A stretch of 64,000 bases of DNA, taken from assembly GCF_030013595.1 (NCBI RefSeq), contig NZ_CP122768.1; one strand, written 5' to 3'. The notes under the pieces are model-generated. The model searched no databases and had not been told where the DNA came from. It was given only the letters and a program-made list of their open reading frames with translations. The translations under genes were made by a program, and so were the position numbers. Positions 14,566-60,499 of the stretch are shown here, piece after piece. This stretch comes from Escherichia coli (GTDB lineage Bacteria > Pseudomonadota > Gammaproteobacteria > Enterobacterales > Enterobacteriaceae). The first letter of the stretch is position 1, and each line of letters opens with the position of its first letter.

Positions 14566-14652
14566 GCCCGGATGGTGGAATCGGTAGACACAAGGGATTT
14601 AAAATCCCTCGGCGTTCGCGCTGTGCGGGTTCAAGTCCCGCTCCGGGTACCA
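14566..14652 (+). tRNA. leuZ: tRNA-Leu (TAA), long-variable-arm type; 3' part lies inside prophage attL
   Basis: GCCCGGATGGTGGAATCGGTAGACACAAGGGATTTAAAATCCC...GGTTCAAGTCCCGCTCCGGGTACCA read directly. Confidence 0.92.
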
Positions 14653-14722
14653 TGGGAAAGATGAGAATAAAATCAAAGCAATAAGCAGTGTCGTGAAACC
14701 ACCTTCGGGTGGTTTTTTTGTG
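14597..14722. repeat. Prophage attL: 126-bp direct repeat (3' 56 nt of tRNA-Leu plus downstream terminator)
   Basis: Same 126 bp at 60374..60499 with one mismatch (gatgaga vs gataaga); flanks differ on both sides. Confidence 0.85.
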
Positions 14723-14782
14723 TCTTCTTTCTCATTTCCGAAGATGCGTCCGAAGATGATTTTTCTCTGGACGCATCATCAT

Positions 14783-15826
14783 TCATTTTCTCTGGCCACC
14801 AACTACGGGCACTACTTTAACTTTTCGGTCATATGCTGCTGTCTGTCGTGGGTTCTTATGCCCGGAAATTGCTTGCTTCTCTTCCAGGCTGCCTTCCAGA
14901 TCAGAGATACCTTTTGCTTTCAGATCATGAAATGTGAAGTCTATTTGCAGATGAGGATATTTTTCCTGTGCTGCCGCTTTGACATCACGCCAACGAGAGT
15001 TAAAACCATCACGGGTGTACTTGCCTCCGGTAGTTTGATGAATCACAAACAGGCTACTGATTCCCGGTTTTAATGGCAGAGAACGAGCCAGAGCTATCGC
15101 TTTCTGCAGACGAGGCGACCAGGCTTTGATTTGCTTAACGCCGGTTTTTCCCTGACGAATGTAGATCCCGGAATCGAACAGCTGGTCTTTCTGTAATGAA
15201 AGTACATCACTCTGTCTGGCCACACATAAGTAGGCAATCTCCATTGCCACGCGAACAACATCAGGAGACACTTCATAAACGGCCTGATATTCTTCATCCG
15301 TAATATAACGTTCGCGTGCTGTCTCTTTAAACTGCTTAACTCCCTGACAAGGATTCCTCTGGACATAACCTCGTTCATAACCCCAACGGAATACCCTGGA
15401 CATAAAGCTTTTTTCCCTATTTGCCTGAGTTCGGCTTGATAAACCGCGTTGATCCATATAGCGCCGAATATGTTCAGGTTTGATTTTATCCGGGTCGATC
15501 TTCCCGAAGACAGGCAGAACTTTTCCGGAATATTTTGTGTAGTCTTTCCTGGTTTCGACTGCCAAATCCATAAAATCAGGGGAGGTCATGAATTGTTCCG
15601 CGAGCGCCTGAAAAGTATTTCTTTCTTTTTCGTCACCGACCGCTTTTTCATATGCCAGCCATACGGCTGATCGTGGCGCATCCAATGCGCACAGGCGTAT
15701 CGCTTTGTTATCTTTATTCCTGAATTCGTAGGCCGCTTTGCCCTGGTAAACACGAGGCGGCATCCAGTTATCTGCTGGGTTCTTTCTCTTTCCGGCCATT
15801 AAATATTGCTCCAAAATCAGGTTCAT
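14783..15826 (-). CDS. int: Prophage tyrosine integrase
   Basis: 347-aa ORF next to attL/tRNA, opposite orientation; C-terminal region (...HDLKAKGISDLEG...SGHKNPRQTAAYDRK) resembles tyrosine-recombinase catalytic region. Confidence 0.85.
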   Translation of the reverse strand: MNLILEQYLMAGKRKNPADNWMPPRVYQGKAAYEFRNKDNKAIRLCALDAPRSAVWLAYEKAVGDEKERNTFQALAEQFMTSPDFMDLAVETRKDYTKYSGKVLPVFGKIDPDKIKPEHIRRYMDQRGLSSRTQANREKSFMSRVFRWGYERGYVQRNPCQGVKQFKETARERYITDEEYQAVYEVSPDVVRVAMEIAYLCVARQSDVLSLQKDQLFDSGIYIRQGKTGVKQIKAWSPRLQKAIALARSLPLKPGISSLFVIHQTTGGKYTRDGFNSRWRDVKAAAQEKYPHLQIDFTFHDLKAKGISDLEGSLEEKQAISGHKNPRQTAAYDRKVKVVPVVGGQRK

Positions 15827-16031
15827 CTTCTTTTCGCGTCGTCACCTCCTGTAAATTGCGAAATTTTATTGGGTTCAAGAAATGGCCCCAGGTTGTTTTT
15901 GGGTGCCCGTCAGCCCTTTCCATGAAGAAAATTCCAGCCCGGCGAAGAGCCTCACATTGCTTTGATTTAAGTGGGCTTCCCGTCAGCTCGACCATTTCTT
16001 CTCTGGTGATTATGTCGTGATCGCTTTTCAT
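15768..16031 (-). CDS. Putative excisionase / small DNA-binding protein
   Basis: 87-aa ORF immediately upstream of int and overlapping its start, as for lambdoid xis; no diagnostic motif. Confidence 0.35.
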   Translation of the reverse strand: MKSDHDIITREEMVELTGSPLKSKQCEALRRAGIFFMERADGHPKTTWGHFLNPIKFRNLQEVTTRKEDEPDFGAIFNGRKEKEPSR

Positions 16032-16240
16032 GGTCTTTCCTCATTATGTAGCTTATTGCGTCATCTGCCTTCTGGCAGGCACGGGCAATATCAGACTCGG
16101 TCAAAGTCTGTTTCCTGACGCTGGCCGACAGTCGGCCAATTTTGATATCAAATGCGGAGAGCAGAGTTGCTCCCGGTTGCCATCGCAGCATTGTGATCCT
16201 CCGGTTACTGGTGAAACGCAATGCTAGCGATGGTGAGTTT

Positions 16241-16423
16241 TTATTTCTGATTAGGCGTAATCAGTTCTGGTGGGGGGAATGCCGATTTCTCCCGCGTGAC
16301 CTTAATGTTTTCTGGCAGGTGTAGCCCAAGTTCGCAGCGACTCCGTGCTTCAATAATGCCATTGGTACCATCGGCAAGTACCAGGTGAACCGCGTCACCA
16401 CGCTTTAATGTGAGTTTAAGCAT
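16241..16423 (-). CDS. Small early protein with CsrA-like sequence pattern
   Basis: 60 aa MLKLTLKRGDAV...GLHLPENIKVTREK; gapless alignment to CsrA (MLILTRRVGETL...GVNAPKEVSVHREE) conserves M1 L2 L4 T5 G9 G33 P37 V42 R44 E45. Confidence 0.3.
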   Translation of the reverse strand: MLKLTLKRGDAVHLVLADGTNGIIEARSRCELGLHLPENIKVTREKSAFPPPELITPNQK

Positions 16424-16992
16424 TAGCGTACCCTCAGCGAACGTTCGCCGCGTTCCAGATGTGCGCCTGGTACCGGGTTTAATAACTCGGCTGGTGGTGT
16501 TTCTCCACGCGCCAGTATTTCGGCGGCAACCGCCTCCGCAGATTCAATCACTTCTTTAATGGCTCGCTTGTTTGGTGTAATAACCGTTTCTACATCAACA
16601 AGTGACACGCCTTCATACTCATCCGGGATCTTATCTTTGCTATCGATAATTACCCGGATAGCCCCCTGTGCATCAGTAAATGTGTTTTTTGCGGTTTTTA
16701 GTTTATCCAGGCCAGCAGCTTGCAGGCAGGCGAGCATATGCTTCCGAATTGCTTTTTCCTTGCCTTCAAAGGACGTCTTACGGGTAGCCAGGCGAGACAT
16801 TTCTTCAGCGCAGGTACTGGCATTGCCCTGTAAATTACGGCAGATGACCATCATGGCGTCCAGTTTGTCTCCCAGTTCTCCTTCCATACCTTCAAGCGTG
16901 TCGGCGATCATCTCTGGCGTCAGTTCGTCGGAGGTTTCTAACAGGTCAATCAGACTGGCATATTCTTTTGCAATAGCGATAGCAGTGCTCAT
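16423..16992 (-). CDS. Phage recombination-module protein (Gp157-like, tentative)
   Basis: 189-aa acidic ORF directly downstream of the annealing-protein gene; family from memory. Confidence 0.4.
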   Translation of the reverse strand: MSTAIAIAKEYASLIDLLETSDELTPEMIADTLEGMEGELGDKLDAMMVICRNLQGNASTCAEEMSRLATRKTSFEGKEKAIRKHMLACLQAAGLDKLKTAKNTFTDAQGAIRVIIDSKDKIPDEYEGVSLVDVETVITPNKRAIKEVIESAEAVAAEILARGETPPAELLNPVPGAHLERGERSLRVR

Positions 16993-19214
16993 GCTGTTTG
17001 CTCCTGTGCTGCGGTGAGGGCGGTGAGGCGTTCGGTTTTGATTTCATTCAAACGGCGCAGGCGCGAACCAAGATAAGTTGAATACTCCTTATCACCTTTG
17101 GATTCTGCGGCCTTGCGGTGAACTTCTACTTCCCGCGCAATAAGGCCATAGACTTTATTAACTTCATTGGGGGTTACGGCTGCAGCCAGTGTTTTGGCAA
17201 CACCTGAGAGTCGTTCATCCAGTTCTTCACGCAGTCGGGTAGCATCCTCTGCTTTCTCGCTTGCCTTCTTAATACTGTATTCTGTATTCAGCTCGGCGGT
17301 GTAGGCACTATCGTTATGCATATCCATATAAACATCTGCCGCAAATCCCAGATGAGATAGTGCTTTGACGGTGGCATCAGTAAGAGACTTTTTGGAGGCC
17401 TCTTTTTCCATTACCAGTGCCCCTTTGTTATTTTTTGATATGTAATCCGTGTGGCCATATGACGGAATAAATCCTTTCACTCCGTTCCAGATGTACCAGA
17501 GATCTATCCGGATGGTGTGTACTGACAGGCAGAACAGGGAACCGTCAGCATCCCTGACAGGTTTTTGTCCAATAATTTTCCCTGTCTGATCCTGTATAGG
17601 TTCAAGTAATGGCACACCGCGATCCACTCGCTCCTCCTTGATTTCAACTCCCCAACCAATGCCTTCCATTCCCAGCACTTCAGTCGCACGCATCAAAATA
17701 TATTGTGCGCGTATGGAGTGCAGTCCTGCACCGTAATCATTATGTGTGACATACGCAGGATCGGTCCGCTGAACGCGATTCCAGATAGCCAAATTTGCTT
17801 TGCTCTGGTCATCATTCATTGCTGACAGATAATGCTCCATGCGAATTGATGCAGTTTTTTCCTCGGCATGGGGCGGCTCAACCAGCGCGTCAACGTTCTG
17901 CACCAGGTCTTTTACCTGCTCGCTAAGTTTTTCTTGTGGAGGAGTCTCTTCTGCCGGGGTAATAGCTGCAGGTTCCCTCTGTGATACGGCGTTATTTTCA
18001 GGTACGTCATACACATGGCGAGGCGTGACAAACTGCTCACGCAACTGCTGCAAACTACGTTCTCCAGCATTTGCTGCTTCGCTTTTTTCGCCCTGATTTG
18101 AGGGTGTTTCTGACATCATTCCATCAATTGAGAATCGCCCGCCGCCGTGGTTGGTGACTTTTACATCATCCTTTGGTGCTGTTTCCTTTGGCTTCTCTTC
18201 AACAGCATTTGCATCACGCTGCCCGTTAGCTTGCAGCCAGTTGTCGATGTGACTGCGCAGGGATTGCGGGAAGTGGTACGTGTCTTTTGCGGGGGCGCTC
18301 TGAATAACACCGAATACTGATGCGCGGTCATAGGCAAGGATCTGATCCGTTGTGCGCAAGGCCATTGACCAGCGTTTAAAATCCTCCCGATCCTGGCTGA
18401 TTATTTCGTCTGCCGCTTTCAGGACGCTGGGGGTGATTTTTTCCGGGCCAACGGGTAACAGGGCGCAGGCAATTTCACGATCCAGTGTGGCGTGAGTCTG
18501 TTGGTAAGGACGTGCGGATGCTGTTTCTGGTTTTACCTCCGGCAGCATTTCATCGCGTTTACCGGGATTCTCTACCCATTTTTTTATAAATTTGGAGATA
18601 GTCCAACTGGTCGGGTTTTGTTCCTGGGTATCGCAACTTGCCAAAATTGCATGTACCAGATTATTCAATCCAGCAATATGCATGTACTCGATGGGCTTAC
18701 ACGCCACCATGGCATCAAGAACGATGCGGTTAAACGCGTCAACCTCATCCTCACTGTCAGTATCACTGTTGTCGAGCATCTCCAGGTATTCACGCGTCTG
18801 CGCAAGCAATTCACTGTCGACTTCGTTGGCGTCGTGGCTGAACAGCAGGACGGCGGCGAAGCGTTCACGAGCCGGCAGTTTCATCAGGTCGTTAACCTGT
18901 GCGATATCTGCTGAACCGCTATCTGAATCAGCGGGGGTGTTAACTACCCATTTTTCGCCATCAAAACTGTGTTCTGTGGCAAACGTCTCATCAAACTCAC
19001 CGACGCCAGGGCGCGGTTGGCCCGGGGCATCTTCCCAGATTTTAGGTTTGAAATAGTTGTCGCCGTGGTCAGGGTAGGCTTCCCACAATTTGCCGATGAT
19101 GATGTTCTCGGCAACTTTTTTGTTAGGGGCGTCGATGGCGATGGCCAGCGCCGGGATCGCGCCGTTTTTGAGCGCGCCTTTTTTCGCTTCTAACAAGCCG
19201 TTAAAGATGGTCAT
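16989..19214 (-). CDS. Large early protein with C-terminal Erf/Rad52-type single-strand annealing domain (tentative)
   Basis: 741-aa ORF, RBS GAGGAAAGACCA before ATG; C-terminal ...KEASKKSLTDATVKALSHLGFAADVY resembles the Erf signature; N-terminal ~450 aa acidic, unrecognised. Confidence 0.5.
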   Translation of the reverse strand: MTIFNGLLEAKKGALKNGAIPALAIAIDAPNKKVAENIIIGKLWEAYPDHGDNYFKPKIWEDAPGQPRPGVGEFDETFATEHSFDGEKWVVNTPADSDSGSADIAQVNDLMKLPARERFAAVLLFSHDANEVDSELLAQTREYLEMLDNSDTDSEDEVDAFNRIVLDAMVACKPIEYMHIAGLNNLVHAILASCDTQEQNPTSWTISKFIKKWVENPGKRDEMLPEVKPETASARPYQQTHATLDREIACALLPVGPEKITPSVLKAADEIISQDREDFKRWSMALRTTDQILAYDRASVFGVIQSAPAKDTYHFPQSLRSHIDNWLQANGQRDANAVEEKPKETAPKDDVKVTNHGGGRFSIDGMMSETPSNQGEKSEAANAGERSLQQLREQFVTPRHVYDVPENNAVSQREPAAITPAEETPPQEKLSEQVKDLVQNVDALVEPPHAEEKTASIRMEHYLSAMNDDQSKANLAIWNRVQRTDPAYVTHNDYGAGLHSIRAQYILMRATEVLGMEGIGWGVEIKEERVDRGVPLLEPIQDQTGKIIGQKPVRDADGSLFCLSVHTIRIDLWYIWNGVKGFIPSYGHTDYISKNNKGALVMEKEASKKSLTDATVKALSHLGFAADVYMDMHNDSAYTAELNTEYSIKKASEKAEDATRLREELDERLSGVAKTLAAAVTPNEVNKVYGLIAREVEVHRKAAESKGDKEYSTYLGSRLRRLNEIKTERLTALTAAQEQTA

Positions 19215-19565: not shown

Positions 19566-20416
19566 AGCGACTCCTTGGTGATGTATACTCGGGACCGATC
19601 AGCGAATATTGATCAGCTTCCATAGCGTCAGTGTCGTTGGTCTTTCCTCATCACAAGTTTGGTCACTTGTGATAAATCCGAATGGTTTGGTCGCCGTTCG
19701 GGGTAACTGGCCCGCCTTGTGCGGGTCTTTTGCTATCTAAAGGGTGCCGGTTACGTTTCCGGCGTCGTTATGTTTCCATCACGACCGTACGGGGCTGGTC
19801 TTTCCTGTTTTGAGCTGGTCAGGCTCATGGTCAACGCTGGTCAGGCGTGGTACTTCCTCCGGTCTTTCCCTGGTGTCACGCTGCGGGTTTGGCCTCTCCT
19901 GTTGGGGACTCAGGCACAGCGATAAAACCTGGCTGTGTGAAAAAATGGCCCATCGTGCGGACTGGGCAAAGGCTAAACACAGCAAATTGATGATGGGCGC
20001 CCGGAATCGAACCGGGTAACGGGCAGGGAGTTCCCGTTAAACACCTGTTCACCACAACCGGGAGCGCACTCCGCCATTTCAAAATTTAACGACAAAGCTC
20101 AAAGTTGAGTCGATGAAGTGCGCTCTCGTGTTGTAGCCAGGACTCTTCCCTGGTGGTCACACCGTATCGCCTTGATGGTGAATCAATCGCTCATACCTGG
20201 CTGTGGCTTGCACATTCCGGCTAGCTGCTATGGAGACAACGCGTTAAGGCTCCGCTTCCATCCAGACCGCTTCGACACATGTGCCATATGCCGGCGAAGT
20301 CTTTCCCTCTGTCATCGTGTTGGCGCCGACGCGCAAAATTTGATGCCGTCTTTCCGGCTGTCAGAACGTGTTTCTGAACAACTGCCGCTGGGTAAGCGTT
20401 GTTGATGAAAGTGACT

Positions 20417-20436
20417 TTACAATTTGTATTTGTAAT
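20417..20436. promoter_or_regulatory. Putative left operator (OL-like) palindrome
   Basis: ttacaatttgtatttgtaat with TTACAA / TTGTAA half-sites, same half-site as at 21010..21048 on the other side of the repressor gene. Confidence 0.4.
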
Positions 20437-20561
20437 GGTCAACGTATTTTTAAAAAATAATTTGTAGTTAGGGGCAAAAAAATATTCACTGTGTAAAGGT
20501 GTTTTTGTGTTAGGGGGAAAGTTGCATGCCAGCAGCGGCTGGCCTGGAAATTTGAACTGAA

Positions 20562-20975
20562 CTATTTTGTCTGGTTTTTGGCTTCAAGTAGTTCTTTTAG
20601 CAGTAGATCGAAGTGCTCTCTTTTTTCTTTTAGCTCATTGATTAATTTATTTTTTTCGCTCTCAGGCAGTCCTCTGAATAGTTGCAGTAGAGCCTGTTCT
20701 TGCGGGGTTAGTTCTTGATTGTAATTACCCGGGTGTAGCGTGGATTCATCCAAATATTCACCTTCATTCATGAAGAAAAAATGAACAGGGTATCCGGTCA
20801 CTTTTGCTAGCTTGTCTAATTTATCTTTTCTTGGAGTTACCCCATTACACCATGCCTGAACTGATTGAGCCGTAACCCCAATATGGCGAGCTAACTCAGA
20901 TTGAGACCAGCCTAAGTCTTTTAGAATCCGTTGTAGTCGGCTAGCAAAAGCCATGTTTTTCGTTTTTGTGTTCAT
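20562..20975 (-). CDS. Prophage repressor (CI/RacR-like, XRE-family HTH)
   Basis: HTH LGWSQSELARHIGVTAQSVQAWCNG; divergent from cro-like gene; exact start uncertain (track ORF extends to 20990 with TTG). Confidence 0.6.
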   Translation of the reverse strand: MNTKTKNMAFASRLQRILKDLGWSQSELARHIGVTAQSVQAWCNGVTPRKDKLDKLAKVTGYPVHFFFMNEGEYLDESTLHPGNYNQELTPQEQALLQLFRGLPESEKNKLINELKEKREHFDLLLKELLEAKNQTK

Positions 20976-21009
20976 ACCGTAAGGATACAAGGTTTAATTG
21001 TAGGGAGCA

Positions 21010-21048
21010 TTGCAAATATAATTTGTAATTACAGTTATGATTTGTAAT
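21010..21048. promoter_or_regulatory. Putative right operator region (OR-like) between repressor and cro-like gene
   Basis: ttgcaaatataatttgtaa palindrome plus a second atttgtaat half-site. Confidence 0.45.
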
Positions 21049-21073
21049 GATGGCGCGGACACAAGGAGTCCAT

Positions 21074-21304
21074 ATGGATAAACAACTGCAAGACAAAATT
21101 CTTTCCGTAATGAGTCAATCCGAGTTAGGGCGGCGATTAGGGAAAAAACCACAAACGGTAAGCCTCTGGTTCAAAGGAAGGGTTCCCGGTGAAGAGGTTT
21201 TGCGCACATCTGAAGCTCTTGAATGGCGCGTGACCCCCCATGATCTTAGACCGGATCTTTACCCAAACCCAGATGACAGCTTGCCTAAAACGAAAGCAGC
21301 TTAA
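21074..21304 (+). CDS. Cro/YdaS-like HTH regulator
   Basis: AAGGAG RBS before MDKQLQDKIL...; HTH SQSELGRRLGKKPQTVSLWFKG; divergent from repressor. Confidence 0.55.
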   Translation: MDKQLQDKILSVMSQSELGRRLGKKPQTVSLWFKGRVPGEEVLRTSEALEWRVTPHDLRPDLYPNPDDSLPKTKAA

Positions 21305-21362
21305 CTGTTGGTGAGCCCCAAATCTGATTAAGCGTAATCAATTTTTAGCGACAGGAGACGCT

Positions 21363-21839
21363 ATGGAAAACCAAGAGGAATTACAAAAAGAGATTTTGAC
21401 CTGGGCGGCAAGGGCAGGGCAGGAACTCGTCACGATTGAAATCTGCCGGGCCTGGTTCAGTCAGGGACGCAATGATGAGTTGAGACTACATGAATTTGAG
21501 GACGCGGACGGCAATGTGGACTGGAGAGCCATCAACAACAATCGGCAGAAAATCTTTCGCTGGTTACGTGGCGAGACAACGGCGGCGCGCCGAAAAACTC
21601 AGGTGCTGGCCAGTGTGATGAAAGCCGTGCTACCCGCAGAACGGCGGGCGCGTCTGGAGTCGCCGGGCGATCCCGTTTTGCTGGCAACGCTGGCGGCAAA
21701 AGAAGGGGTGGAAGCGATTAACGCTGTACATCTCCACTTCGCGCCAGAGATAACTATTCAGGAAATTGACGAAGCAATAGCGGCGCTGGTAGCGACGCGA
21801 GGGGCAGTGATAAGCACTGCGCAAGGCCATCATGCATGA
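21363..21839 (+). CDS. YdaT-like / CII-like early regulator
   Basis: 158 aa; ...NRQKIFRWLRGET... resembles Rac YdaT as I recall; position after cro. Confidence 0.45.
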   Translation: MENQEELQKEILTWAARAGQELVTIEICRAWFSQGRNDELRLHEFEDADGNVDWRAINNNRQKIFRWLRGETTAARRKTQVLASVMKAVLPAERRARLESPGDPVLLATLAAKEGVEAINAVHLHFAPEITIQEIDEAIAALVATRGAVISTAQGHHA

Positions 21840-22105: not shown

Positions 22106-23182
22106 ATGAGTCGTTTGCTGATTAACGAAAACCCCCTTCAGGTCCTGCCCACGTTGGCATGCACTATAGGGTTGAATGAAGCCATCGTTCTACAGCAAAT
22201 CCACTACTGGCTGAATTCATCTCAAAATTTCTTCGAAAATCGCCACTGGGTGTACAACAGTGTGACCGATTGGCAAGAACAATTCCCGTTCTGGAGCGAG
22301 TCGACAATAAAACGCGTGCTGGCCAATCTGGAAAAATTGAATGTGGTATTTACTGGGAACTTTAACAGTGATGCCTGGGATAAAACCAAGTGGTATTCAA
22401 TCAATTATGCCCAGTTATGTAAGATTGAAGAGACAACATTCCCTGTGGCCAATCGATTAGGTCAAGTTGACCCAATCGAAGAGGTCAATGTGACCCAAGC
22501 ATCAGGTCAAGTTGACCCATGCGCTAAGGTCAAAATGACCCAATCTCTTACAGAGAATACAACAGAGAGTACTACAGAGAGTACTACAGAGATAAAAGAT
22601 CCCCCTTACCCCCAAAAGGGGGAGGGCGAGGAAATCATTCTCGCTGACGCTCAAAAAGCTCTGAACTACTACAACGAGAAAGTCGGTACACGCTGCCGCG
22701 ACGTTAAACCGTTTGTCATGCTGCTGACTGCCACCACCACCCGCGCTGGTTACAGCGTGGCTGAGATTCAGTTAGTAATTCGTTGGGTTATTGCGACATG
22801 GCGCCGTCGTAGCGGAAGCGTGCCGAAACCTGCGAACATTTGCCGCGTAAACCGGTTTGACGGATATCTGGCTGACGCTGAGGCGTGGGCCACTGCTGAG
22901 GCTGCCGTTGACCCTGCTGAAGTTGTGAAGGGCTACAACGAGATTCTGGGCGACCTGCTACCTATAGCTGAAATTGATACTGACCGCCGTCGGGCAATCC
23001 TGCGCCTGCTGGCACATATGCGCACGCAAACTCTTGGCGCATTTATCGGCTACTTCGAAAAATTCCGCGATAACGCCCCAGACTTCTATTTCGGCGGCGA
23101 ATATCGCACCGGCTGGCGGGCAGGGTTTGATTACCTGATGAAGCCAGAAACACTGCGTAAAACCAGGGAAGGGGCATTATGA
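22106..23182 (+). CDS. Replication initiator (lambda O-like, ori iterons inside the gene)
   Basis: GGAG RBS before MSRLLINENPL...; four GGTCAA-NN-TGACCCA iterons and a TESTTESTTE-encoding repeat in mid-gene; followed by helicase. Confidence 0.6.
   Translation: MSRLLINENPLQVLPTLACTIGLNEAIVLQQIHYWLNSSQNFFENRHWVYNSVTDWQEQFPFWSESTIKRVLANLEKLNVVFTGNFNSDAWDKTKWYSINYAQLCKIEETTFPVANRLGQVDPIEEVNVTQASGQVDPCAKVKMTQSLTENTTESTTESTTEIKDPPYPQKGEGEEIILADAQKALNYYNEKVGTRCRDVKPFVMLLTATTTRAGYSVAEIQLVIRWVIATWRRRSGSVPKPANICRVNRFDGYLADAEAWATAEAAVDPAEVVKGYNEILGDLLPIAEIDTDRRRAILRLLAHMRTQTLGAFIGYFEKFRDNAPDFYFGGEYRTGWRAGFDYLMKPETLRKTREGAL
22460..22543. repeat. Origin iterons: 4 copies of GGTCAA(NN)TGACCCA at ~23-bp spacing
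   Basis: ggtcaagttgaccca / ggtcaatgtgaccca / ggtcaagttgaccca / ggtcaaaatgaccca, followed by (actacagagagt)n. Confidence 0.6.
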
Positions 23183-46582: not shown

Positions 46583-46616
46583 GAGCCGAAAGGCTCTTTT
46601 TTGTTAAGGAAGCAAC

Positions 46617-50795: not shown

Positions 50796-50797
50796 CT

Positions 50798-51424
50798 ATG
50801 GCAAGTCAAAGTGTGCTGCCTCCGAACGCAATAACTCCCGAGAGGGCGCTTGAGGTTGTTTTATCTCACGTCGGCGATCTGCCTGGCGATATTCGAATTA
50901 TTAAAAATCCCGATTTGTGCCCTGCAAATCTGTTGCCGTGGCTGGCGTGGGAGTACGCGGTCACCTACTGGAACCCCGACTGGAGTGAGCAGCAAAAACG
51001 CGAAATTATTAAGGCCGCAGCCTGGCAAAATAAATATCGCGGCACGCGTGGTGCCGTCGAACGAGCATTATTAACGGTGGGATTTGAGAGCAAAATGAGA
51101 GAGTGGTTTGAAGCCACGCCCAGGGACGACCCGTATACATTCGCAATTAAAATATATCTGCTAAAAAGTATAGGGTTAGATTTAGAACTATTGAATACCT
51201 TTATTGCACAAATATTTGATGCAAAAAATTGCCGTTCCTTATTAAAAGAAATAAATTTTGAAACGGGTGTCGATGGTGAGTTTTTTATAGCTGGTGCACC
51301 TTACGCGAAAATAGGCGTAAATATTCCAGCAGACGGCGACGGCGGTGTAAAAATTAACGGCGGGCTATATATATCAGGCTCACCAATTGTTAGTTTAAAT
51401 GTGGAGATAGGGCCAAATGGCTGA
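50798..51424 (+). CDS. Tail protein I-like
   Basis: 208-aa ORF in I position. Confidence 0.55.
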   Translation: MASQSVLPPNAITPERALEVVLSHVGDLPGDIRIIKNPDLCPANLLPWLAWEYAVTYWNPDWSEQQKREIIKAAAWQNKYRGTRGAVERALLTVGFESKMREWFEATPRDDPYTFAIKIYLLKSIGLDLELLNTFIAQIFDAKNCRSLLKEINFETGVDGEFFIAGAPYAKIGVNIPADGDGGVKINGGLYISGSPIVSLNVEIGPNG

Positions 51425-52595: not shown

Positions 52596-52607
52596 TGGAG
52601 GTAATAA

Positions 52608-54107
52608 ATGAGCACTAATTTTTTGCACGGCCCCCGCACGCTCGAATACGACGACGGAACAAAAGAGATCAGCACGGTCGATATTTCCGTTATCGGTATC
52701 GTCGGCACTGCCCCGGATGCGAGCGCCCCCACATGCGCATCACTACTATGGGGATCAGAACTCGCAGATAATCTTGTTCAGTTTTCCACTGTCATGCCTG
52801 GGGCCGACGGAAACAACTGGATTGTCGAAATCGTCAATCTCGGTATTAACGGGAATGTAGCAACTCCAGGATACAGCACACTGCCCGACGGTTCGAGAAA
52901 ATTAACAATGATCACGGACGGTGCCATGACTCCGTCAAAAATGTACGATCAGAACCAGCAGTATAAAGAAGGACTCCAGATTGGAGAATATATTAACGTC
53001 ACATTCGGTGGTGATCACGCAGGAACGGGGACTGTATTCGCGCTCCCCCCAACAAATTTATCCGGTGGTAAAGACGAATCGTTCAAATATAATGTTCCGA
53101 CGTTAATTGCAGGCAGTCAAAAAAAAGCTGGATTGCTCGGTGGGTCTGGCACCCTTCCTCCCGCTGTATCTGAAATCCTAAATCAGGATGACGCTATTAT
53201 TGTTGTTGTCCGCGTTGAAGAAGACAGTGACGAAACAAAAATGAGGCAGAACGTCGTTAACGGGATTAACGCATTGTTGACGTCTGCACAAATAAATCAA
53301 GTGACTCCGAGAATTTTAATTGCTCCAGATTATAGTGCTAACGATTATATCGCTGAACAACTTGAAGTGGTGACAAATAAATTACGAGGTGTTGGGTATA
53401 TCGATTCACCGCGAGGCGCTACGCCTGCTGACGTTGTGAATCGTCGTCAGAGATATGGCGCCAGGATGGAAATTTTACGCCCTCGCGTTTATTCTACGAG
53501 TGATGTCAGTGGGTTATCTCGTCCGTATTCAGCTATCGCTGCTGGTTTGCGAGCCAGAATTGATAATGAAAAAGGATTCTGGTGGAGTAAATCGAACCAG
53601 AATATCTACGGAGTTACAGGGCTTGAACAAGTCGACGATTTTATTATTGGTGAGACAAACTGCACAGCGAACCTGTTGAACGCCAGTCAGGTCAGCACAA
53701 TTATTCGCTATGACGGGTTCCGGCACTGGGGTAACTATCTGTGTAGCCTCAGTCCCCAATGGTCCTTTGAATGCGTTCGTCGAACAGCTGACGTAATTGA
53801 GGATTCTATAGCCCGGGCAATGATGACCGATTTTATTGATCGTCCGATAGATCTGCACCTCGGAACAGACGTTGTCGAGTCGATAAACGCATATCTGCAC
53901 AAATTAGAGGAGCAGGGCGCGATTAACGGAGGGCGTGCGTGGTTAGACGGTGAGCTGAATACAAAAGAAAGTCTGGCCGCTGGTAATCTTTATATTAATG
54001 TTGATTTTGGTCCGAAATCTCCGGCACAAACAATTACGTTAATGTACCGCATTAATAATGACTATACAGTTGAAGCACTGGCCTCACTTTTTAAAGAAAC
54101 AGCCTGA
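52608..54107 (+). CDS. Contractile tail sheath protein
   Basis: 499-aa ORF followed by tube gene; myovirus sheath position. Confidence 0.75.
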   Translation: MSTNFLHGPRTLEYDDGTKEISTVDISVIGIVGTAPDASAPTCASLLWGSELADNLVQFSTVMPGADGNNWIVEIVNLGINGNVATPGYSTLPDGSRKLTMITDGAMTPSKMYDQNQQYKEGLQIGEYINVTFGGDHAGTGTVFALPPTNLSGGKDESFKYNVPTLIAGSQKKAGLLGGSGTLPPAVSEILNQDDAIIVVVRVEEDSDETKMRQNVVNGINALLTSAQINQVTPRILIAPDYSANDYIAEQLEVVTNKLRGVGYIDSPRGATPADVVNRRQRYGARMEILRPRVYSTSDVSGLSRPYSAIAAGLRARIDNEKGFWWSKSNQNIYGVTGLEQVDDFIIGETNCTANLLNASQVSTIIRYDGFRHWGNYLCSLSPQWSFECVRRTADVIEDSIARAMMTDFIDRPIDLHLGTDVVESINAYLHKLEEQGAINGGRAWLDGELNTKESLAAGNLYINVDFGPKSPAQTITLMYRINNDYTVEALASLFKETA

Positions 54108-54124
54108 TAATTCGGAGAGTAAAT

Positions 54125-54637
54125 ATGTCAGATAGCAACGCTTACCGCGCGTTTGCGCTATTCGTGCAAGGTGAACGGGTTTTAAATTGTACTGAATATA
54201 CTCCTGTTGATATGAAAATAATCGAGGACGAGTTTAAAACAGGCGCGATGGATACAGCCATAACACTGGATGGGGGGATGGAGAAAATGTCAGCCAGTTT
54301 TAAAGTTTCTGGTTCTGATTCTGGTGTTATGAGCTATTTCGGGTTAATACCGGGAGTCAAGACGCGGTTTGAAATTCGTAGTGCGTACACAGACTCCTAT
54401 GGAATAAATTTTGAGCGTATTGATACCTACGAGGGACTTATTACGGCAATCACTGATGACGCTCAGGGGACTGATTCAAAATCGTCAGTGGGGCAATCAG
54501 TAACGATTGCTCCGAGCTATTATAAACGAGTTCAAAATGGACGAATTATTTACGAAATTCATCCTGCAAAAATGAAGCGTGTTATCAACGGTGTTGATGT
54601 TCTTGCAGGCGTCGCTCGAATCCTTCATGTATATTAA
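54125..54637 (+). CDS. Tail tube protein
   Basis: 170-aa ORF directly after sheath. Confidence 0.7.
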   Translation: MSDSNAYRAFALFVQGERVLNCTEYTPVDMKIIEDEFKTGAMDTAITLDGGMEKMSASFKVSGSDSGVMSYFGLIPGVKTRFEIRSAYTDSYGINFERIDTYEGLITAITDDAQGTDSKSSVGQSVTIAPSYYKRVQNGRIIYEIHPAKMKRVINGVDVLAGVARILHVY

Positions 54638-54649
54638 AAGGTAAGTAAA

Positions 54650-54931
54650 ATGGAATCCTTATTAGACAGTATGACTATTACGCTCTCTCGCCCGTTTATT
54701 ATTAAGGGCGAGAGTTGCGATACAATTACTATTCGCGAACCAAAATTACGCGACCGCATTATGTTCAGTAACGATAAAAGTGGTCTTGAAGAGCGGACAG
54801 CGACAATGCTGGCGCGCCTGGCAAATCTGGAGCGAGATGATTTATATGCACTGCCTGCGTGCGATTACGATCAAATGGAGGCCGCGTTTAACGAACTGGT
54901 AAAGCCCCCGAAAGGCCGACGTCAGATATAG
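54650..54931 (+). CDS. Tail assembly chaperone-like protein
   Basis: 93-aa ORF between tube and tape measure. Confidence 0.4.
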   Translation: MESLLDSMTITLSRPFIIKGESCDTITIREPKLRDRIMFSNDKSGLEERTATMLARLANLERDDLYALPACDYDQMEAAFNELVKPPKGRRQI

Positions 54932-55039
54932 TTATTCTGATTCCGTTTATTGCGAAAAAACTTGCCATCCCGCCCGATACGCAAATGGACCTGCCGTATC
55001 GGGTTTTTAATTTCTATGTAAACGAGGTCATGAAAACCG

Positions 55040-56680
55040 ATGGCTATTTCTCAAAACTTTAAAACTCAGGTTGTATTCGGGGGGCGAATAGACCCGTCGT
55101 TTCGGCGTGGTACAACAGAACTCAACGATGCAATTCGGCAGACGTCGTCTACTGTCGGAAAATTAACGAAAAGCCAGGATAAATTAAAAGACAAAATCGC
55201 AGCAATGAAACTGGCGGGTAAAGACGTTTCTGATTTATCTGCTCAGTATCAAAAGCTGGACCGTCGGATAAAAGCGACAACACAGGACCAGGAAGCTCTG
55301 AATACTCAGCTCGCTAAAAAACAGCGGCTGGAGAAATGGACGGGGCGCGCAAAAGGGGCTGCAAAATGGGGAGGGCGAGCGGCTGCAAGAACGATAAAGG
55401 CAACAGGAAAAGGCATCAAATGGGGGACGCTTGGCGCGGCGGGGCTCATTGGCGGTGCAGCTGCTGGTGCGCTGGCAATGAATGCAGAGACGTCAGAAAA
55501 ACTCGGTCTGGCGAAGTCCTACGGCGTTGGCGTCGAAAAATACGCCGCGTGGGACAATATCGGTAAAGCAGCCGGGCTTAACGGCGAAAATATCGGGGAT
55601 TTGTCAGAAGAACTTACAAATAAAATCGGCGAAATCGGAAACGAAAAAAACCTGAATCCCATGTTGTTTCAAATCGGCCTGACGAAAAAACGAATGGCTA
55701 GCTGGGATCGGGAAAAACAGTTTAATGAGGTTATGCGTCGCATCTCTGAAATGAAAGATGAGAAGCAAGCGGCGAGTCTTGCTGACCAGCTCATGGGGGG
55801 CGAAGCTAATAAAATCATGACGTATATGAAGGCCACTGGTAAAAGTTGGGAACAGACAATGGCCGACGCGCAAAAATCGAATCTGTTAACAAAAGAGGGT
55901 GCGGAAGGAGCGGCGCGTGCGCATGTATCAGTGACAAATCTGTGGGGCTCTATTACGTCGGGGCTTGCAGATACACTCGGTAAAATCGGGGGGGAACTCG
56001 CGCCGACGTTTGACTCAGTACGCGAAACATTTACAGCATGGTTTAAGGACAATCAGGGCGGATTTGTCAGCACAATTACTGAGTGGGTAAAGCCCGAAAG
56101 CATGAAAAAAATGTGGGAGGGGATAGTCAGTTTTGGCGAAGCTTGCGTTAAATTCGGAAAAATAATTTGGGCAGTAGCAAAAAAACTTGAGTGGTTAATT
56201 CCGGACGAGAAAACAGACGAGGAACAGCGCGTATATAACGAAGAATATAATAAGGCGTATCAGGAATTCATGGATAGTGGTGGTAAATATTCACCGAATC
56301 CCGGACAGGCAGCAGATAATGTAGCAAAAGCAAAAGCCGACGAAGCCGTAGATAATATGCGACACCCTGAACGTCTTGCTCGTGCAAAATCACAGGCTGA
56401 ATCAATGCTCTCATTTGCTAACCCGTTTACTGGATTAATAAATAAAAACTCAACGCCTGAATCACAAAACTCAGCAACGTTGAATATTGACGCGCTGAGA
56501 CAGGCAGTCGCAACTCCTGCTCCAGAGCAAAACAATAAAATTGAAATCAATATTGTCGGAGCAACTGATCCGCAATCAATACAGCAATCTGCAGCATCGG
56601 GGGTGCTCGATGGGTTGAGACAAGTTGCGAGTTCGTACAATCGTGGCGCGATGTTTGATAAACCAGCTCCGGCGGGGTGA
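55040..56680 (+). CDS. Tail tape measure protein
   Basis: 546 aa, Ala/Gly/Lys-rich with coiled-coil-like repeats; position before U-X-D. Confidence 0.65.
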   Translation: MAISQNFKTQVVFGGRIDPSFRRGTTELNDAIRQTSSTVGKLTKSQDKLKDKIAAMKLAGKDVSDLSAQYQKLDRRIKATTQDQEALNTQLAKKQRLEKWTGRAKGAAKWGGRAAARTIKATGKGIKWGTLGAAGLIGGAAAGALAMNAETSEKLGLAKSYGVGVEKYAAWDNIGKAAGLNGENIGDLSEELTNKIGEIGNEKNLNPMLFQIGLTKKRMASWDREKQFNEVMRRISEMKDEKQAASLADQLMGGEANKIMTYMKATGKSWEQTMADAQKSNLLTKEGAEGAARAHVSVTNLWGSITSGLADTLGKIGGELAPTFDSVRETFTAWFKDNQGGFVSTITEWVKPESMKKMWEGIVSFGEACVKFGKIIWAVAKKLEWLIPDEKTDEEQRVYNEEYNKAYQEFMDSGGKYSPNPGQAADNVAKAKADEAVDNMRHPERLARAKSQAESMLSFANPFTGLINKNSTPESQNSATLNIDALRQAVATPAPEQNNKIEINIVGATDPQSIQQSAASGVLDGLRQVASSYNRGAMFDKPAPAG

Positions 56681-57105
56681 CAATGAGTGATGCAATAAAC
56701 GGTGCTGAAGACATCATGCTCGGCTTGGGTGATTTCATTTTTGCTATATCAACAGTAGCGTACAACAAACTGCAACGTAGTGACGCCTGGCGCTGGGCTC
56801 AGCAAACACGATTCGGGAAAAACGACGCGTTGCAGATAACTGGACGACCGAACCCCACTATCACGATTGATGGAAAAATAAACGCGTTATTTCTTGACGG
56901 GTGCGGCGTTGGCCTGTTGACGGATTTGCGGGCATTGGGAAACACGGGAGAACCCCAGCAGCTAGTGCTGGGGACTGGGGAAGTGAAGGGGTACTGGGTG
57001 CTGCGGGAACTAACTGAAACGCAAAACAGCTTTTTGATGGGCGGAACCCCAAAATCGCAGGACTTTTCACTCACGCTCGAATATTATGGAGTTTCGCTAG
57101 ATTAA
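56677..57105 (+). CDS. Tail protein (P2 gpU-like)
   Basis: 142-aa ORF overlapping tape-measure stop. Confidence 0.5.
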   Translation: MTMSDAINGAEDIMLGLGDFIFAISTVAYNKLQRSDAWRWAQQTRFGKNDALQITGRPNPTITIDGKINALFLDGCGVGLLTDLRALGNTGEPQQLVLGTGEVKGYWVLRELTETQNSFLMGGTPKSQDFSLTLEYYGVSLD

Positions 57106-57262
57106 TACAAAATCAAGCGCTACCAGAGCACTTAACAAGTATAAAAATAAAAAAAACTACGAACATAAATGTAAAACAACCTGATGGTATTTTTTTGACG
57201 CCGAAATACTAATACCTCTCCGACTACTAAAATTAATTCTCATTATGAAATCCTTTTAATTA

Positions 57263-57487
57263 ATGGGGCCCCAAATGATTACATACACTACACGGGACGG
57301 TGACCGTCTCGATCAGATCTGCCTTGCTGTCTACGGGAGAACAGCAAAAACGACAGAAACCGTGTTATATCAGGTTTTAAATTACGGCGTAACGGATATG
57401 TGTGCCGTGTTTCGTGCAGGAGAAAAAATTGTTTTACCAGAAATCGACCCCGAACCGGTTAAAAAAGAAACGCAATTATGGGATTGA
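57263..57487 (+). CDS. Tail protein X-like
   Basis: 74-aa ORF between U and D. Confidence 0.5.
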   Translation: MGPQMITYTTRDGDRLDQICLAVYGRTAKTTETVLYQVLNYGVTDMCAVFRAGEKIVLPEIDPEPVKKETQLWD

Positions 57488-57490
57488 TGA

Positions 57491-58534
57491 ATGAGTGATT
57501 ACGTAAATACTGGCGTGGAAGCATGGAAGCCCAATTTTTATATATCTGCTGATAATGAAAACATCACGGATAAAATAAGAAAAGGTTTGATCAATATCAC
57601 GCTCACAGATTATGGTGGTTCGAGTAAACAGACAGACGAATTACGCGTAGCAATCGTTTCTGAAACTCTGAAAATTCCGGCCCGCGGAGTAAAAATCAGT
57701 ATTGGGCTCGGTTTCGGTAATCAGATAATTGATAAGGGTGTATACATCGTTGATGGTGCGAGCAGTGGCGGTGAACCCCGGGTAGTTGATTTCACAGCAA
57801 AAGCAGCGCCGATGAACGCATCAAAAGGCTCTCCGACAGTTCAGAGCAAAAAAACTCGCTCCTGGAGCGACGTCACTGTCAGCAATATCGTTGCAACAAT
57901 AGCGAGCGATAACGGGCTAAAACCACGCGTATCAAAGCGGTTTGCAGACAATATTATCACGCAACTCGATCAAGTCGGCGAGTCAGATATGCACCTGATG
58001 TCGAGACTAGCAACACGATTCGATGCGGTGAGTAAACCCGCGGGAGGGTACTGGATATTCCTGCCGCGCGGCGCGGGCGAATCTGTTAGCGGAGCGCCGC
58101 TTCAGCACTACACGCTCACGCGTCGTGATAACTCCAGCTGGGGTTATTCACGAAACGGACAAAGTGGCGATAGTGGTAGCGGTGGCGAAAATCCGGAACC
58201 GACGTATCTGATTAAATATCACGACACAGCAACTGGGCAGATCAAAGAATTGCGGACAGGTAGTGGCGGCGATCCTGTCATTGAATGGCCGACAGTTGAG
58301 CCGTCGCTCGACGCAGCGAAAGAAGCTGCACCAGGGCTCAAGGGCGGTGCAGCTAAAAAAGAGTTCTCTATGACGTACACGACGCCAGCGACGCTCGATT
58401 TAGTGTCGCTGACAGCAGAATGCAAAGTCACAACTCAAGGATTCGGGACCGAGGAGGACCGGGACTGGACTATCAACACGCTGAGCCTGACGCTTGCTGA
58501 AAACGGCTTTTCGGTTCGACTGTCACTGGAGTAA
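57491..58534 (+). CDS. Tail protein D-like (late control D)
   Basis: 347-aa ORF, end of the contractile-tail gene set. Confidence 0.65.
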   Translation: MSDYVNTGVEAWKPNFYISADNENITDKIRKGLINITLTDYGGSSKQTDELRVAIVSETLKIPARGVKISIGLGFGNQIIDKGVYIVDGASSGGEPRVVDFTAKAAPMNASKGSPTVQSKKTRSWSDVTVSNIVATIASDNGLKPRVSKRFADNIITQLDQVGESDMHLMSRLATRFDAVSKPAGGYWIFLPRGAGESVSGAPLQHYTLTRRDNSSWGYSRNGQSGDSGSGGENPEPTYLIKYHDTATGQIKELRTGSGGDPVIEWPTVEPSLDAAKEAAPGLKGGAAKKEFSMTYTTPATLDLVSLTAECKVTTQGFGTEEDRDWTINTLSLTLAENGFSVRLSLE

Positions 58535-58539
58535 ATGAA

Positions 58540-59487
58540 ATGGCAGTAATATCGGGTGTATACGCAAACGGGATCGGTGGGCCAGTTGTCGGCGTTCAGT
58601 TAGTATTAACAGCGCGGGTCACGAGTTCAGGCGTAGTAATGACCACCGTTGTAGAGCAAAAAACAGGCGCGGCGGGTGAGTACAAATTTGATATGAAGCC
58701 CGGCGTTTATGTCGTCACTGGTTGTGGCGCGTATCTGGGCGTGATTAATGTTAATCCGGACAGCCCAGACGGTACGCTAAACAACTATTTAACTAATTTT
58801 AGCGCAGACGAAATGACGCCGGCGGCGCTGACCGAGATCCAGGAACTGGTTAACGAGGCGAAGGCCGCGGCGGCTACTGCTCAGGATGCTGCTGCGCAGG
58901 CGATAACCGCAGTAGAAAAAATCGGCACGCCTGCGCCGTACATCCCGCCAGCGTGGGACGCCCCGGGGAGCACAATTTTTGGATATCTTTATATTGATAA
59001 AGGCACGTCATATCTACGGCCGGGGGAGATTGTTTCCGCGTCGTCAATTTACGTTGGCAACGTGACAATGATCGATAAGGGGAGCGGCCCGATGATCGGC
59101 ATGAGTCACACGCAGCAGCCCAGCGGTGGGAGTTGGCGTTTGCAAGGCAGCACAACACCAAATACAGACGCGAGTGTTAAATCAATGCGCAGCGCATTGA
59201 TTTTTCTCAGAATTGATAGCGACAGCCTGTTAACGCCCTCTCTGTTAAAAAGCGGTCGCGGCTCTGCGCGGGTGCGTAATTGCCGTTACGTAAACGCAGA
59301 GGGGACCTCGATTGATTGCGAGATTTTCACAGCAAACAGATGGATTCCGTTTACAGCGGCCGCTGATGACGTAACTGATTGGGGACGAAAAATTTTCAGC
59401 GACGCCCTAGCCGGTTTGTACGGTGTGATTGGCGTATTCGGCGCCCCCCTTTTTCCAGCTAATTGCAGTGAATCACCAGTAGTCTAG
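58540..59487 (+). CDS. Tail-fiber-related protein with Stf-like N-terminal domain
   Basis: N-terminus MAVISGVYANGIGGPVVGVQLVLTARVTSSGVV... resembles lambdoid side-tail-fiber N-termini; C-terminal part unrecognised. Confidence 0.4.
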   Translation: MAVISGVYANGIGGPVVGVQLVLTARVTSSGVVMTTVVEQKTGAAGEYKFDMKPGVYVVTGCGAYLGVINVNPDSPDGTLNNYLTNFSADEMTPAALTEIQELVNEAKAAAATAQDAAAQAITAVEKIGTPAPYIPPAWDAPGSTIFGYLYIDKGTSYLRPGEIVSASSIYVGNVTMIDKGSGPMIGMSHTQQPSGGSWRLQGSTTPNTDASVKSMRSALIFLRIDSDSLLTPSLLKSGRGSARVRNCRYVNAEGTSIDCEIFTANRWIPFTAAADDVTDWGRKIFSDALAGLYGVIGVFGAPLFPANCSESPVV

Positions 59488-59732
59488 CCCCCTGACCATC
59501 ATGGTGTAACAGGAGTTCGCTTGGCTGAAACGGATTCTCGGCGCGGTTATCTCTTGAGTAAATGAAACGGACTTGGGGAGGCTATAGAGAGCGCCAATTT
59601 AGTATTAACGACAGTCGACTGCAAACGGCACCTGCGTTATTTTTATGTGTAAGCCGAAGGACGAAGAGCCTCTGGTGCTGGACGTTGTTATCGTTAGATG
59701 CTGACAATTTTTAATATTGGGAGTTTTCAAAC

Positions 59733-60152
59733 ATGGTCGTTAAAAATGCTCTTGCCTGTGGGATTATGCTTGCTCTTGTCGGTTGTGCTACAAAACCTGT
59801 CTCAAATGAACAAGCCACACCTGTTCCTGAAAAACAAATAATCAGTACCGCGTTACTCGAAAAACGAGACGGTACGGGAGAGGTGATCATCAAGCGTGAC
59901 TCGGGGTTCTTTGGAAGCGCGTGCTTTTCCCGTGTTTATGTTGATGGTAAAGAGGTGGCAGATTTAGGTACAGCTCAGAAAGTCGTTGTATACCCAACGA
60001 TTGGAGATCATGTCTTCAGCGCGTGGCCTAAAGGGGTATGTGGCGGTGGCATGAGCGAACAGGCGGGCAAGGTGACAACAGAACGTACTTTGATGTATCG
60101 CATAGGGTATGGATCAAACGGTGAATATGGCATTCACCCAACTGCGTTTTAA
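59733..60152 (+). CDS. Prophage-end lipoprotein (moron)
   Basis: MVVKNALACGIMLALVGC lipobox; 139 aa; last gene before attR; hairpin at ~60172-60200. Confidence 0.5.
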   Translation: MVVKNALACGIMLALVGCATKPVSNEQATPVPEKQIISTALLEKRDGTGEVIIKRDSGFFGSACFSRVYVDGKEVADLGTAQKVVVYPTIGDHVFSAWPKGVCGGGMSEQAGKVTTERTLMYRIGYGSNGEYGIHPTAF

Positions 60153-60373
60153 TTTGTGTTGGGGTATGTGAGTTTTTCTCATACCCCTTTACCTCACTTT
60201 GCTCTTGACTGTTTGGTCACATCAAGGCGCAAAACATCACCATTTTTTGCCAAAAACCTTCAGAAGATGATGAGTAAGACGTGTCATAACTATATGATTA
60301 TTTGATATTCACACACACCATTATGTCCGGATAATTTACCATAATCATTTGAAATTATTGCACAAAACGAACA

Positions 60374-60499
60374 ATTTAAAATCCCTCGGCGTTCGCGCTG
60401 TGCGGGTTCAAGTCCCGCTCCGGGTACCATGGGAAAGATAAGAATAAAATCAAAGCAATAAGCAGTGTCGTGAAACCACCTTCGGGTGGTTTTTTTGTG
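60374..60499. repeat. Prophage attR: second copy of 126-bp repeat (includes 3' 56 nt of tRNA-Leu, 60374..60429)
   Basis: Identical to 14597..14722 except one base. Confidence 0.85.

Follow-up and report, generated by a model that had tools for sequence, protein, structure and literature searches.

Why would a prophage that has entered a tRNA gene be flanked by direct repeats of 126 bp, and what do such repeats contain? The question is raised by a 64,000-nucleotide stretch of Escherichia coli DNA (NZ_CP122768.1, assembly GCF_030013595.1; hereafter the window), in which a first-pass annotation, made from the letters alone, had proposed a mosaic prophage at the 3′ terminus of the tRNA-Leu gene leuZ, with an attachment (att) core that it called unusually long. 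The element is best read as a temperate phage genome of 45.8 kb (44.5 kb without the insertion sequence IS629), integrated into leuZ by its own tyrosine integrase, combining a lambda-type head with a P2-type tail and probably defective in packaging; we put the probability of this reading, taken as a whole, at about 0.93. What had been taken for a long core is a block of identity that rebuilds the 3′ half of leuZ together with the small RNA (sRNA) 3′ETS-leuZ and its terminator, and the crossover would lie in its first ~29 bp. Gene names were transferred from the annotation of the relative NZ_CM149870.1 by the Prokaryotic Genome Annotation Pipeline (PGAP), and the key genes were checked independently with Pfam, PHROGs and PADLOC (Table 1).

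Insertion at leuZ and its boundaries

The two copies of the repeat were identified with a repeat finder and compared by pairwise alignment, which bears out the first-pass description. They differ at a single position (G at 14663, A at 60440) and cover the last 56 nt of leuZ (to 14652), followed by 70 nt that run through a GC terminator hairpin and its T-run. The window holds two copies only, one of them inside leuZ, and a near-perfect match of this length is far beyond chance. The left edge of the repeat falls one base 5′ of the 7-nt anticodon loop. Bracketed by the repeats, 45.65 kb of phage DNA separates leuZ from yecA. The integrase gene adjoins attL on the minus strand, and beyond attR the chromosome resumes with yecA and then tyrP (983 of 1001 positions identical to K-12), both as originally described.

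A comparison with prophage-free leuZ-yecA junctions, proposed with that annotation, supports the insertion. We joined positions 13800-14596 in silico to 60374-61200 and searched the complete E. coli genomes with this synthetic empty site. It is present without interruption in 3781 of 5426 genomes, at an identity of at least 95% across the records and of 99.6-99.8% in the best-matching ones, and in alignments, K-12 and strain GMF054 agree with the predicted junction at every base. The target site is thus uninterrupted in element-free genomes, with the junction at the repeat, and the repeats are the exact boundaries of the insertion. In about 30% of complete E. coli genomes, the leuZ-yecA junction is not contiguous.

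The integrase matches PF00589 above the cut-off, and its R, K, H, H and Y residues align with the catalytic residues of lambda Int. A lysine replaces the second catalytic arginine (Arg311 of lambda Int), as it does in the integrases of the isolated phages mEp390, ZF40 and ST64B, all of which share the motif TFHDLKAKG with the window integrase; because this lysine is kept in isolated phages, it is presumably functional rather than a defect. The integrases of mEp390 and ZF40 are 63-64% identical to it. The DUF4224 gene that overlaps the start of int is a putative excisionase or directionality factor, and the mEp390 gene at this position was annotated "putative excisionase". Between the int stop and the block lie two tandem copies of TCCGAAGATG, and a one-mismatch copy, TCAGAAGATG, lies near the opposite end of the prophage. 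In mEp390 and ZF40, motifs of their own, 8-10 bp in length, are likewise repeated in this interval and recur in the arm at the other end, and by this analogy of position only, the TCCGAAGATG repeats are suggestive of arm-type integrase sites. Over the window, the motif occurs 4 times where 4.3 are expected, which is not above chance.

At attR of NZ_CM149870.1, PGAP reports a 105-nt "tRNA-OTHER" (its positions 48820-48924, corresponding to ~60325-60429 of the window), and here a phage sequence, GTCCGGAT, located 49 nt upstream of the attR block, is similar to the 5′ strand of the leuZ acceptor stem, GCCCGGAT. A phage-encoded 5′ half of a tRNA was considered and rejected, with GTCCGGAT occupying the position of the arm repeats of mEp390 and ZF40 and resembling TCCGAAGATG. 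Its likeness to the acceptor strand is probably a coincidence or reflects an arm-type site, and not a tRNA.

The att block and the position of the crossover

In the K-12 annotation, the 67 nt immediately 3′ of leuZ are the sRNA 3′ETS-leuZ (b4759), an external transcribed spacer (ETS) that, in a passage of PMC6191717 citing Lalaouna et al. (2015), is described as pairing with RyhB and lowering its level. The 126-bp block is made up of 56 nt of leuZ, the whole of this 67-nt sRNA with its terminator, and 3 nt past the terminator T-run, where the transcription unit ends. The attR copy matches b4759 at 67/67 positions and the attL copy at 66/67, the difference being the G at nt 11; both the sequence and its position, adjoining leuZ on its 3′ side and closing with the terminator of the operon, are those of this RyhB/RybB sponge. 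In the literature searched, no link between leuZ prophages and the 3′ETS sponge was found, and that the att block holds the entire sponge is new with respect to it.

Nor is the block unusual in its length. Both mEp390 and ZF40 have comparable blocks, and so does an unrelated P2-like prophage at leuZ. The last of these, a degraded prophage of O157:H7, has the same block, with the left edge within one base and the right edge at the terminator T-run, and its integrase gene, at the attR end, encodes an unrelated enzyme (26% identity over a partial alignment). Because the sister phages and the prophage with this unrelated integrase have comparable blocks, the length of the block follows from the site: it is set by the unit to be rebuilt at leuZ and not by the recombinase. 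The long att repeat is therefore explained by the content of the transcription unit, with no call for an unusual recombinase.

The position of the exchange can be approached through a natural chimera in MB20 (NZ_CP073976.1). This genome carries a 5.7-kb prophage remnant at leuZ, consisting of int, the DUF4224 gene, IS1, an O-antigen modification operon (gtrA, gtrB and a glucosyltransferase gene) and humD, and its integrase is of the mEp390 type, a sister of the one studied here. At attL of MB20, leuZ has a phage-type compensated T-stem pair and is followed by an altered 3′ETS. The alleles become phage-type at the first polymorphic site, 29 bp inside the block, and stay so rightward; they include, besides the T-stem pair, several 3′ETS changes, among them a 2-nt deletion, and a changed terminator loop; the attR block is identical to K-12 throughout. 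Because attL is of phage type from the first polymorphism and attR is wholly of host type, the exchange in MB20 took place within the block's first 29 bp, which correspond to window positions 14597-14625. The tRNA similarity ends at the 5′ edge of the anticodon loop in the window phage, mEp390 and ZF40 alike, and together with the MB20 mapping, this conserved left edge makes the anticodon loop, by homology, the likely overlap region for the window integrase. Natural chimeras thus place the crossover of the integrase family at the anticodon-loop end of the block.

The MB20 remnant also bears on whether the recombinase itself needs 126 bp of identity, either as a genuinely long core or because insertion proceeded by homologous recombination. 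Both block copies are nearly identical over their whole length in the window and in the related prophage of sequence type 131 (ST131), as such a need would require, yet the phage-type block of MB20 was integrated despite ~8 differences from the host, including the 2-nt deletion, with exchange in the first 29 bp. An unrelated P2-type integrase has the same block limits in O157, and the block stops 3 nt past a T-run, at the end of a transcription unit. We regard a recombinase requirement for the full block as very improbable. The G/A mismatch at 14663 was considered as a marker of the crossover and set aside as ambiguous: ST131 has A in both copies, and the attL copies in IMG/VR are mixed, with one G and five A (three of the latter in tandem P2-like arrays).

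These observations suggest the following course of integration. The phage attP would carry a 126-bp copy that starts at the leuZ anticodon loop and reaches the operon's end, and strands would be exchanged at the left end of the block, in or near the anticodon loop. Integration would then leave at attL an intact, expressed leuZ-3′ETS unit whose 3′ portion is phage DNA, while the displaced host copy would come to lie at attR, separated from its promoter. With everything rightward of the anticodon region at attL being phage DNA, the tRNA 3′ half and the 3′ETS expressed in lysogens would be phage-supplied. If the ~30% of genomes mentioned above are taken to hold an insert at leuZ, many strains would express a phage-supplied leuZ 3′ half and sponge, with a probably small effect on sRNA regulation.

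Lysogeny at leuZ would in this way swap the host sponge for a phage allele, which could tune the buffering of RyhB and RybB, and selection on attP could include retention of a working sponge; if true, this would affect noise in the iron and envelope-stress responses. The RyhB/RybB seed AUAAGCAGUGUCGU is kept in the window phage, MB20 and mEp390, and differs in the ZF40 block. In silico, the core pairing with RyhB and RybB falls at nt 24-43 of the 3′ETS (RNAduplex) and is unchanged between the two alleles, whose duplex energies are -45.9 and -45.8 kcal/mol with RyhB and -25.8 and -26.7 kcal/mol with RybB, and no functional change is predicted for the A-to-G at nt 11. The attR copy is promoterless and lies behind the hairpin downstream of the lipoprotein gene. 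A tuning role seems doubtful to us, and a real regulatory effect of the phage-supplied 3′ETS is unlikely.

Gene content and state of this copy

The terminase gene terL has one of the lesions of the window copy. Its in-frame amber codon differs by one base, G to A, from the TGG (Trp) found both in the 99.9% identical relative NZ_CM149870.1 and in ST131. The product would be truncated at about residue 287 of 625, losing the half annotated by PGAP as the gpA endonuclease subunit and, we presume, also the portal-binding C-terminus. Because of this premature stop, the window copy would probably be unable to cut and package its DNA, unless the codon is an assembly error or is suppressed. The insertion of IS629 into an LprI-family cargo gene is the other of the two lesions visible here; the first-pass annotation, though right about the prophage, had overlooked both. 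In NZ_CM149870.1, IS629 is absent and its target site uninterrupted; that copy instead carries two IS3-family elements, and ISVsa5 inside terL. The two copies of this lineage have thus been damaged differently.

That the prophage is nevertheless fully functional and inducible, the amber codon being a sequencing or assembly error or being read through in a suppressor host, is possible but clearly the less probable account. It would fit a single G-to-A change in a genome whose other long genes are all intact and 99.9% identical to those of NZ_CM149870.1, in which neither terL nor the exonuclease gene is interrupted by an insertion sequence as in that relative, and for whose family partial GenBank phage records named vB_EcoM exist; against it, the sequence as given has TAG where both relatives compared have TGG, and a protein cut short there lacks the gpA endonuclease half.

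Several points weigh against our reading of a packaging-defective phage that entered by exchange near the anticodon loop. The amber codon rests on one base, which may be an error of assembly or be suppressed in a supE or supF host, and the odd substitutions in glyW of NZ_CM149870.1 show that errors can occur in such assemblies. The mapping of the crossover was made on an integrase only 63% identical to the one in the window and not on the latter, and the G/A mismatch at 14663 may be a mutation that followed integration rather than a phage allele. The exact gapped pattern of the excised attP form was matched by 0 contigs in IMG/VR; the block with the P′ junction alone is present in 7 contigs, all of them in attL or tandem-prophage configuration, and activity of the family is suggested only by the partial GenBank records named vB_EcoM-705R4 and similar. 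As to glyW, NZ_CM149870.1 (185-187) has two substitutions relative to window positions 14373 and 14375, where the window is identical to K-12, and these are probably assembly errors.

Table 1. Positions of the features discussed, in window coordinates, with strand and the basis of each assignment.
Feature	Position	Strand	Basis or remark
tRNA-Gly, tRNA-Cys, tRNA-Leu(taa)	14350-14652		ARAGORN, Rfam; glyW-cysT-leuZ operon, downstream of pgsA
leuZ, tRNA-Leu(UAA)	14566-14652	+	ARAGORN and Rfam; read as a probable chimera from MB20
attL identity block, 126 bp	14597-14722	+	
Probable crossover interval	14597-14625		anticodon loop TTTAAAA at 14598-14604, 3′ anticodon stem, variable arm
3′ETS-leuZ sRNA copy with terminator	14653-14719	+	probably phage-derived; G at 14663 (nt 11), A in K-12; would be expressed with the glyW-cysT-leuZ operon
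Tandem TCCGAAGATG (x2), candidate arm-type Int-binding sites (P′ arm)	14737-14758	+	
Tyrosine integrase	14783-15799	-	Pfam PF00589 and PF22022; lambda Int catalytic residues aligned
DUF4224 protein, putative excisionase/directionality factor, overlapping int start	15768-16031	-	Pfam PF13986, 1e-14
Early-left genes: Gp157-family protein, 741-aa exonuclease	16423-19214	-	
Immunity region	20562-21839	repressor -; others +	helix-turn-helix (HTH) repressor, YdaS/Cro-like and YdaT-like genes; Pfam HTH_3, YdaS_toxin, YdaT_toxin
Replication module: RepO-like initiator, DnaB-type helicase	22106-24570	+	repeat finder; PGAP names in relatives
LprI-family cargo gene split by IS629	26420-26595 and 27906-28680	-	
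IS629, 1310 bp	26596-27905	+	3-bp target duplication ACT at 26593-26595 and 27906-27908
Low-GC cargo region	28681-34061		GC 38.7%, against 48-50% elsewhere
Candidate defence pair, two overlapping genes	29413-31082	+	204-aa unknown protein, 352-aa DUF262/GmrSD_N protein
DUF1367 and DUF1364 proteins, Q antiterminator, two holins, endolysin	35135-37939	+	PGAP of 99.9% identical relative
Small terminase subunit	39633-40199	+	phrog_57, 2e-39
Large terminase (lambda gpA type)	40174-42048	+	phrog_15 matches on both halves; in-frame TAG at 41035-41037
Lambda-like head: gpW, portal, S49 protease, decoration protein, major capsid, FI, head-tail joining	42048-47407	+	
P2-ordered contractile tail: V, W, J, I, fibre, sheath, tube, assembly protein, tape measure, U, X, D	47438-59487	+	
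Lipoprotein moron, lipobox LVGC	59733-60152	+	phrog_890 "lipoprotein", 3e-52; conserved in ST131
TCAGAAGATG, candidate P-arm arm-type site, one-mismatch copy of TCCGAAGATG	60260-60269	+	
attR identity block	60374-60499	+	host-derived promoterless leuZ 3′ part, native 3′ETS-leuZ, terminator; then yecA

The mosaic make-up and the lambda-like head that had been described for the region both hold, and the patchwork relation to the ST131 copy makes the genome mosaic in the ordinary meaning of the word. The terminase is of the Nu1/A type, which is cos-type, and the capsid is ~57% identical in amino acids to those of N15 and several lambdoid and Shiga toxin (Stx) 1a phages. Of the tail that had been called P2/Mu-like, the contractile character and the P2 gene order hold, and no Mu-specific feature was seen, with no test aimed at one; the nearest relatives of its sheath, at 46% identity, belong to Hafnia phage yong2 and Citrobacter phage Chris1, and a second gene for a protein with a fibre N-terminal domain closes the module. 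Upstream of the real terS, PGAP annotates at 39086-39227 what is left of a second small-terminase gene, a frameshifted N-terminal piece. The surrounding ~1.2 kb (38110-39460) is unrelated to the ST131 copy, and the whole is a scar of recombination close to where the cos region is expected. The lipoprotein moron may have a role in surface exclusion or host fitness, and the hairpin that follows its gene (60161-60187), with only a short T-run, is possibly its terminator.

In the early-left recombination region, the 741-aa exonuclease gene is intact here and interrupted by an insertion sequence in the closest relative. The ~1 kb between a 106-aa early-left gene and the repressor (19566-20561) has no annotated gene in relatives; it holds only short open reading frames (ORFs) with TTG or GTG starts, none with a PHROG match, and it is the expected place of a PL-type promoter and of small early genes or RNAs. 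The immunity region is of the Rac-prophage type, and no S24 peptidase match was found in its HTH repressor. Four iterons of ~22 bp lie inside the RepO-like initiator gene, at 22444-22533.

The cargo lies between the replication and Q modules. IS629 is 98.8% identical to the IS629 of Stx phages and has an ALIL frameshift pseudoknot at 26931-27047. The DUF262 protein matches Pfam GmrSD_N (1e-24) and, in PADLOC, NsnA (4e-41) and PD-T4-2_A (2.5e-19), and its gene and the overlapping one form a candidate anti-phage defence pair, as judged from these matches. The pair is absent from the ST131 relative, which has ImmA/IrrE-type and other genes instead. For the other cargo proteins no PADLOC or Pfam match was found, and PHROGs gave only families of unknown function.

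A 240-bp direct repeat, 80-82% identical between its copies, is associated with this segment: copy a (26112-26351) is upstream of the LprI gene split by IS629 and ~2.3 kb away from the low-GC segment, on its upstream side, and copy b (31180-31415) lies within that segment. Each contains the 3′-terminal part of an 85-aa gene together with a hairpin and a minus-strand 23-aa hydrophobic ORF. This ORF, MGGTLKDVFSIVLVVTKYLFNRK (26270-26341), is intact also in ST131 and is broken in copy b; it has no Pfam and no Rfam match, and may be a small membrane peptide gene. A non-coding RNA or type I toxin locus was considered for the repeat and rejected: there was no Rfam match, and scans of the repeats for consensus signals gave no terminator and, in copy b, a single weak promoter-like site at chance level. 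This copy is the decayed duplicate of a phage gene's end, and the repeat looks like a scar of module exchange. The low GC of the 5.4-kb segment (see Table 1) and the diverged repeat pair, with IS629 and the LprI gene between copy a and the segment, are what one would expect if the region were a composite of two elements, a prophage and a separately acquired island; the region has only two att copies and one integrase, though, its cargo occupies the place where ST131 relatives hold other cargo in an otherwise collinear genome, and a decayed duplicate of a phage gene end is the expected product of module exchange between phages. A composite origin is accordingly the least credible of the alternatives considered, and a single mosaic prophage is preferred.

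Distribution and comparison with known phages

Hundreds of sequenced E. coli genomes already show this site, this integrase family and this phage type. Of the complete E. coli genomes, 428 share the junction of attL and int, 431 the attR junction and 441 the late region, ST131 included, and the integrase with its att junctions at leuZ recurs in about 8% of them. The closest relative is the pig isolate NZ_CM149870.1, at 99.4-99.9% identity. In the phage collection searched, no full-length phage genome matches the family, which is represented there by only four partial records, vB_EcoM-705R4, -720R5, -569R10 and -783R5 (ON470624 etc.), at 93% identity; 28 CRISPR spacers from urinary E. coli match 705R4 (PMC12736100). 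Studies of Shiga toxin-producing E. coli O121 and O145 list leuZ as a site of prophages or integrative elements (PMC8767318, PMC7067040). As a prophage call, the element therefore adds little, being a member of a known, widespread family at a known site. Three IMG/VR contigs show tandem occupancy of leuZ, with the attR-side flank of a P2-like prophage, the block, and then directly the P′ arm and integrase of this phage. Because the block in these contigs joins the P2-like prophage to this P′ arm, both phage types can sit head to tail at leuZ.

The ST131 prophage at leuZ (e.g., NZ_OY019088.1, 583.4-626.1 kb) has the same integrase, att junctions, block and gene order, and its late region shares 91-94% nucleotide identity with the window phage. 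Overall, the two form a patchwork of blocks at 97%, at 91-94% or without similarity, and they differ in the cargo between the replication and Q modules, the RepO segment, the fibre tip and the right-end genes.

With mEp390 (JQ182729) and Pectobacterium phage ZF40, the resemblance is concentrated at the integration module. As here, a small gene overlaps the start of int in both, and directly after the int stop their attP has a block made up of the leuZ 3′ half, a 3′ETS-like trailer and a terminator; the depositors of mEp390 annotated a 121-bp putative attP of the same content. The window phage thus has an integrase of the mEp390/ZF40 type, with a leuZ-3′ETS attP starting at the anticodon loop. 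The blocks of mEp390 and ZF40 have host- or lineage-specific substitutions, such as a compensated T-stem pair, and the rest of their genomes is unrelated to the window phage at the DNA level. No mEp390 lysogens were found among complete E. coli genomes; five of these genomes have at leuZ a third integrase variant, with 76-79% nucleotide identity.

The likeness to lambda extends over the divergent cI/cro-type immunity layout, the iterons inside the initiator gene, Q antitermination, the lysis cassette, the Nu1/A terminase and the W-B-C-D-E-FI order of the head genes, and the integrase has the lambda Int fold. The differences are that the capsid has only ~57% amino acid identity to lambda-type capsids, that no S24 peptidase match accompanies the repressor, and that lambda has a siphovirus tail and an att site between gal and bio, whereas the window phage has a contractile tail and a tRNA att site; in place of the non-contractile set (V, G/T, H, M, L, K, I and J) it encodes a sheath, a tube and a P2-type baseplate. 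With P2, and with the Peduoviridae in general, it shares the tail gene set and its order, V-W-J-I-H, FI, FII, E, T, U, X and D, as named by PGAP and PHROGs. In contrast, the P2 capsid and terminase genes (Q, P, O, N, M and L), replication gene A and the P2 regulators are lacking, and the lambda-type head and terminase, and a RepO/DnaB module with iterons, are found instead.

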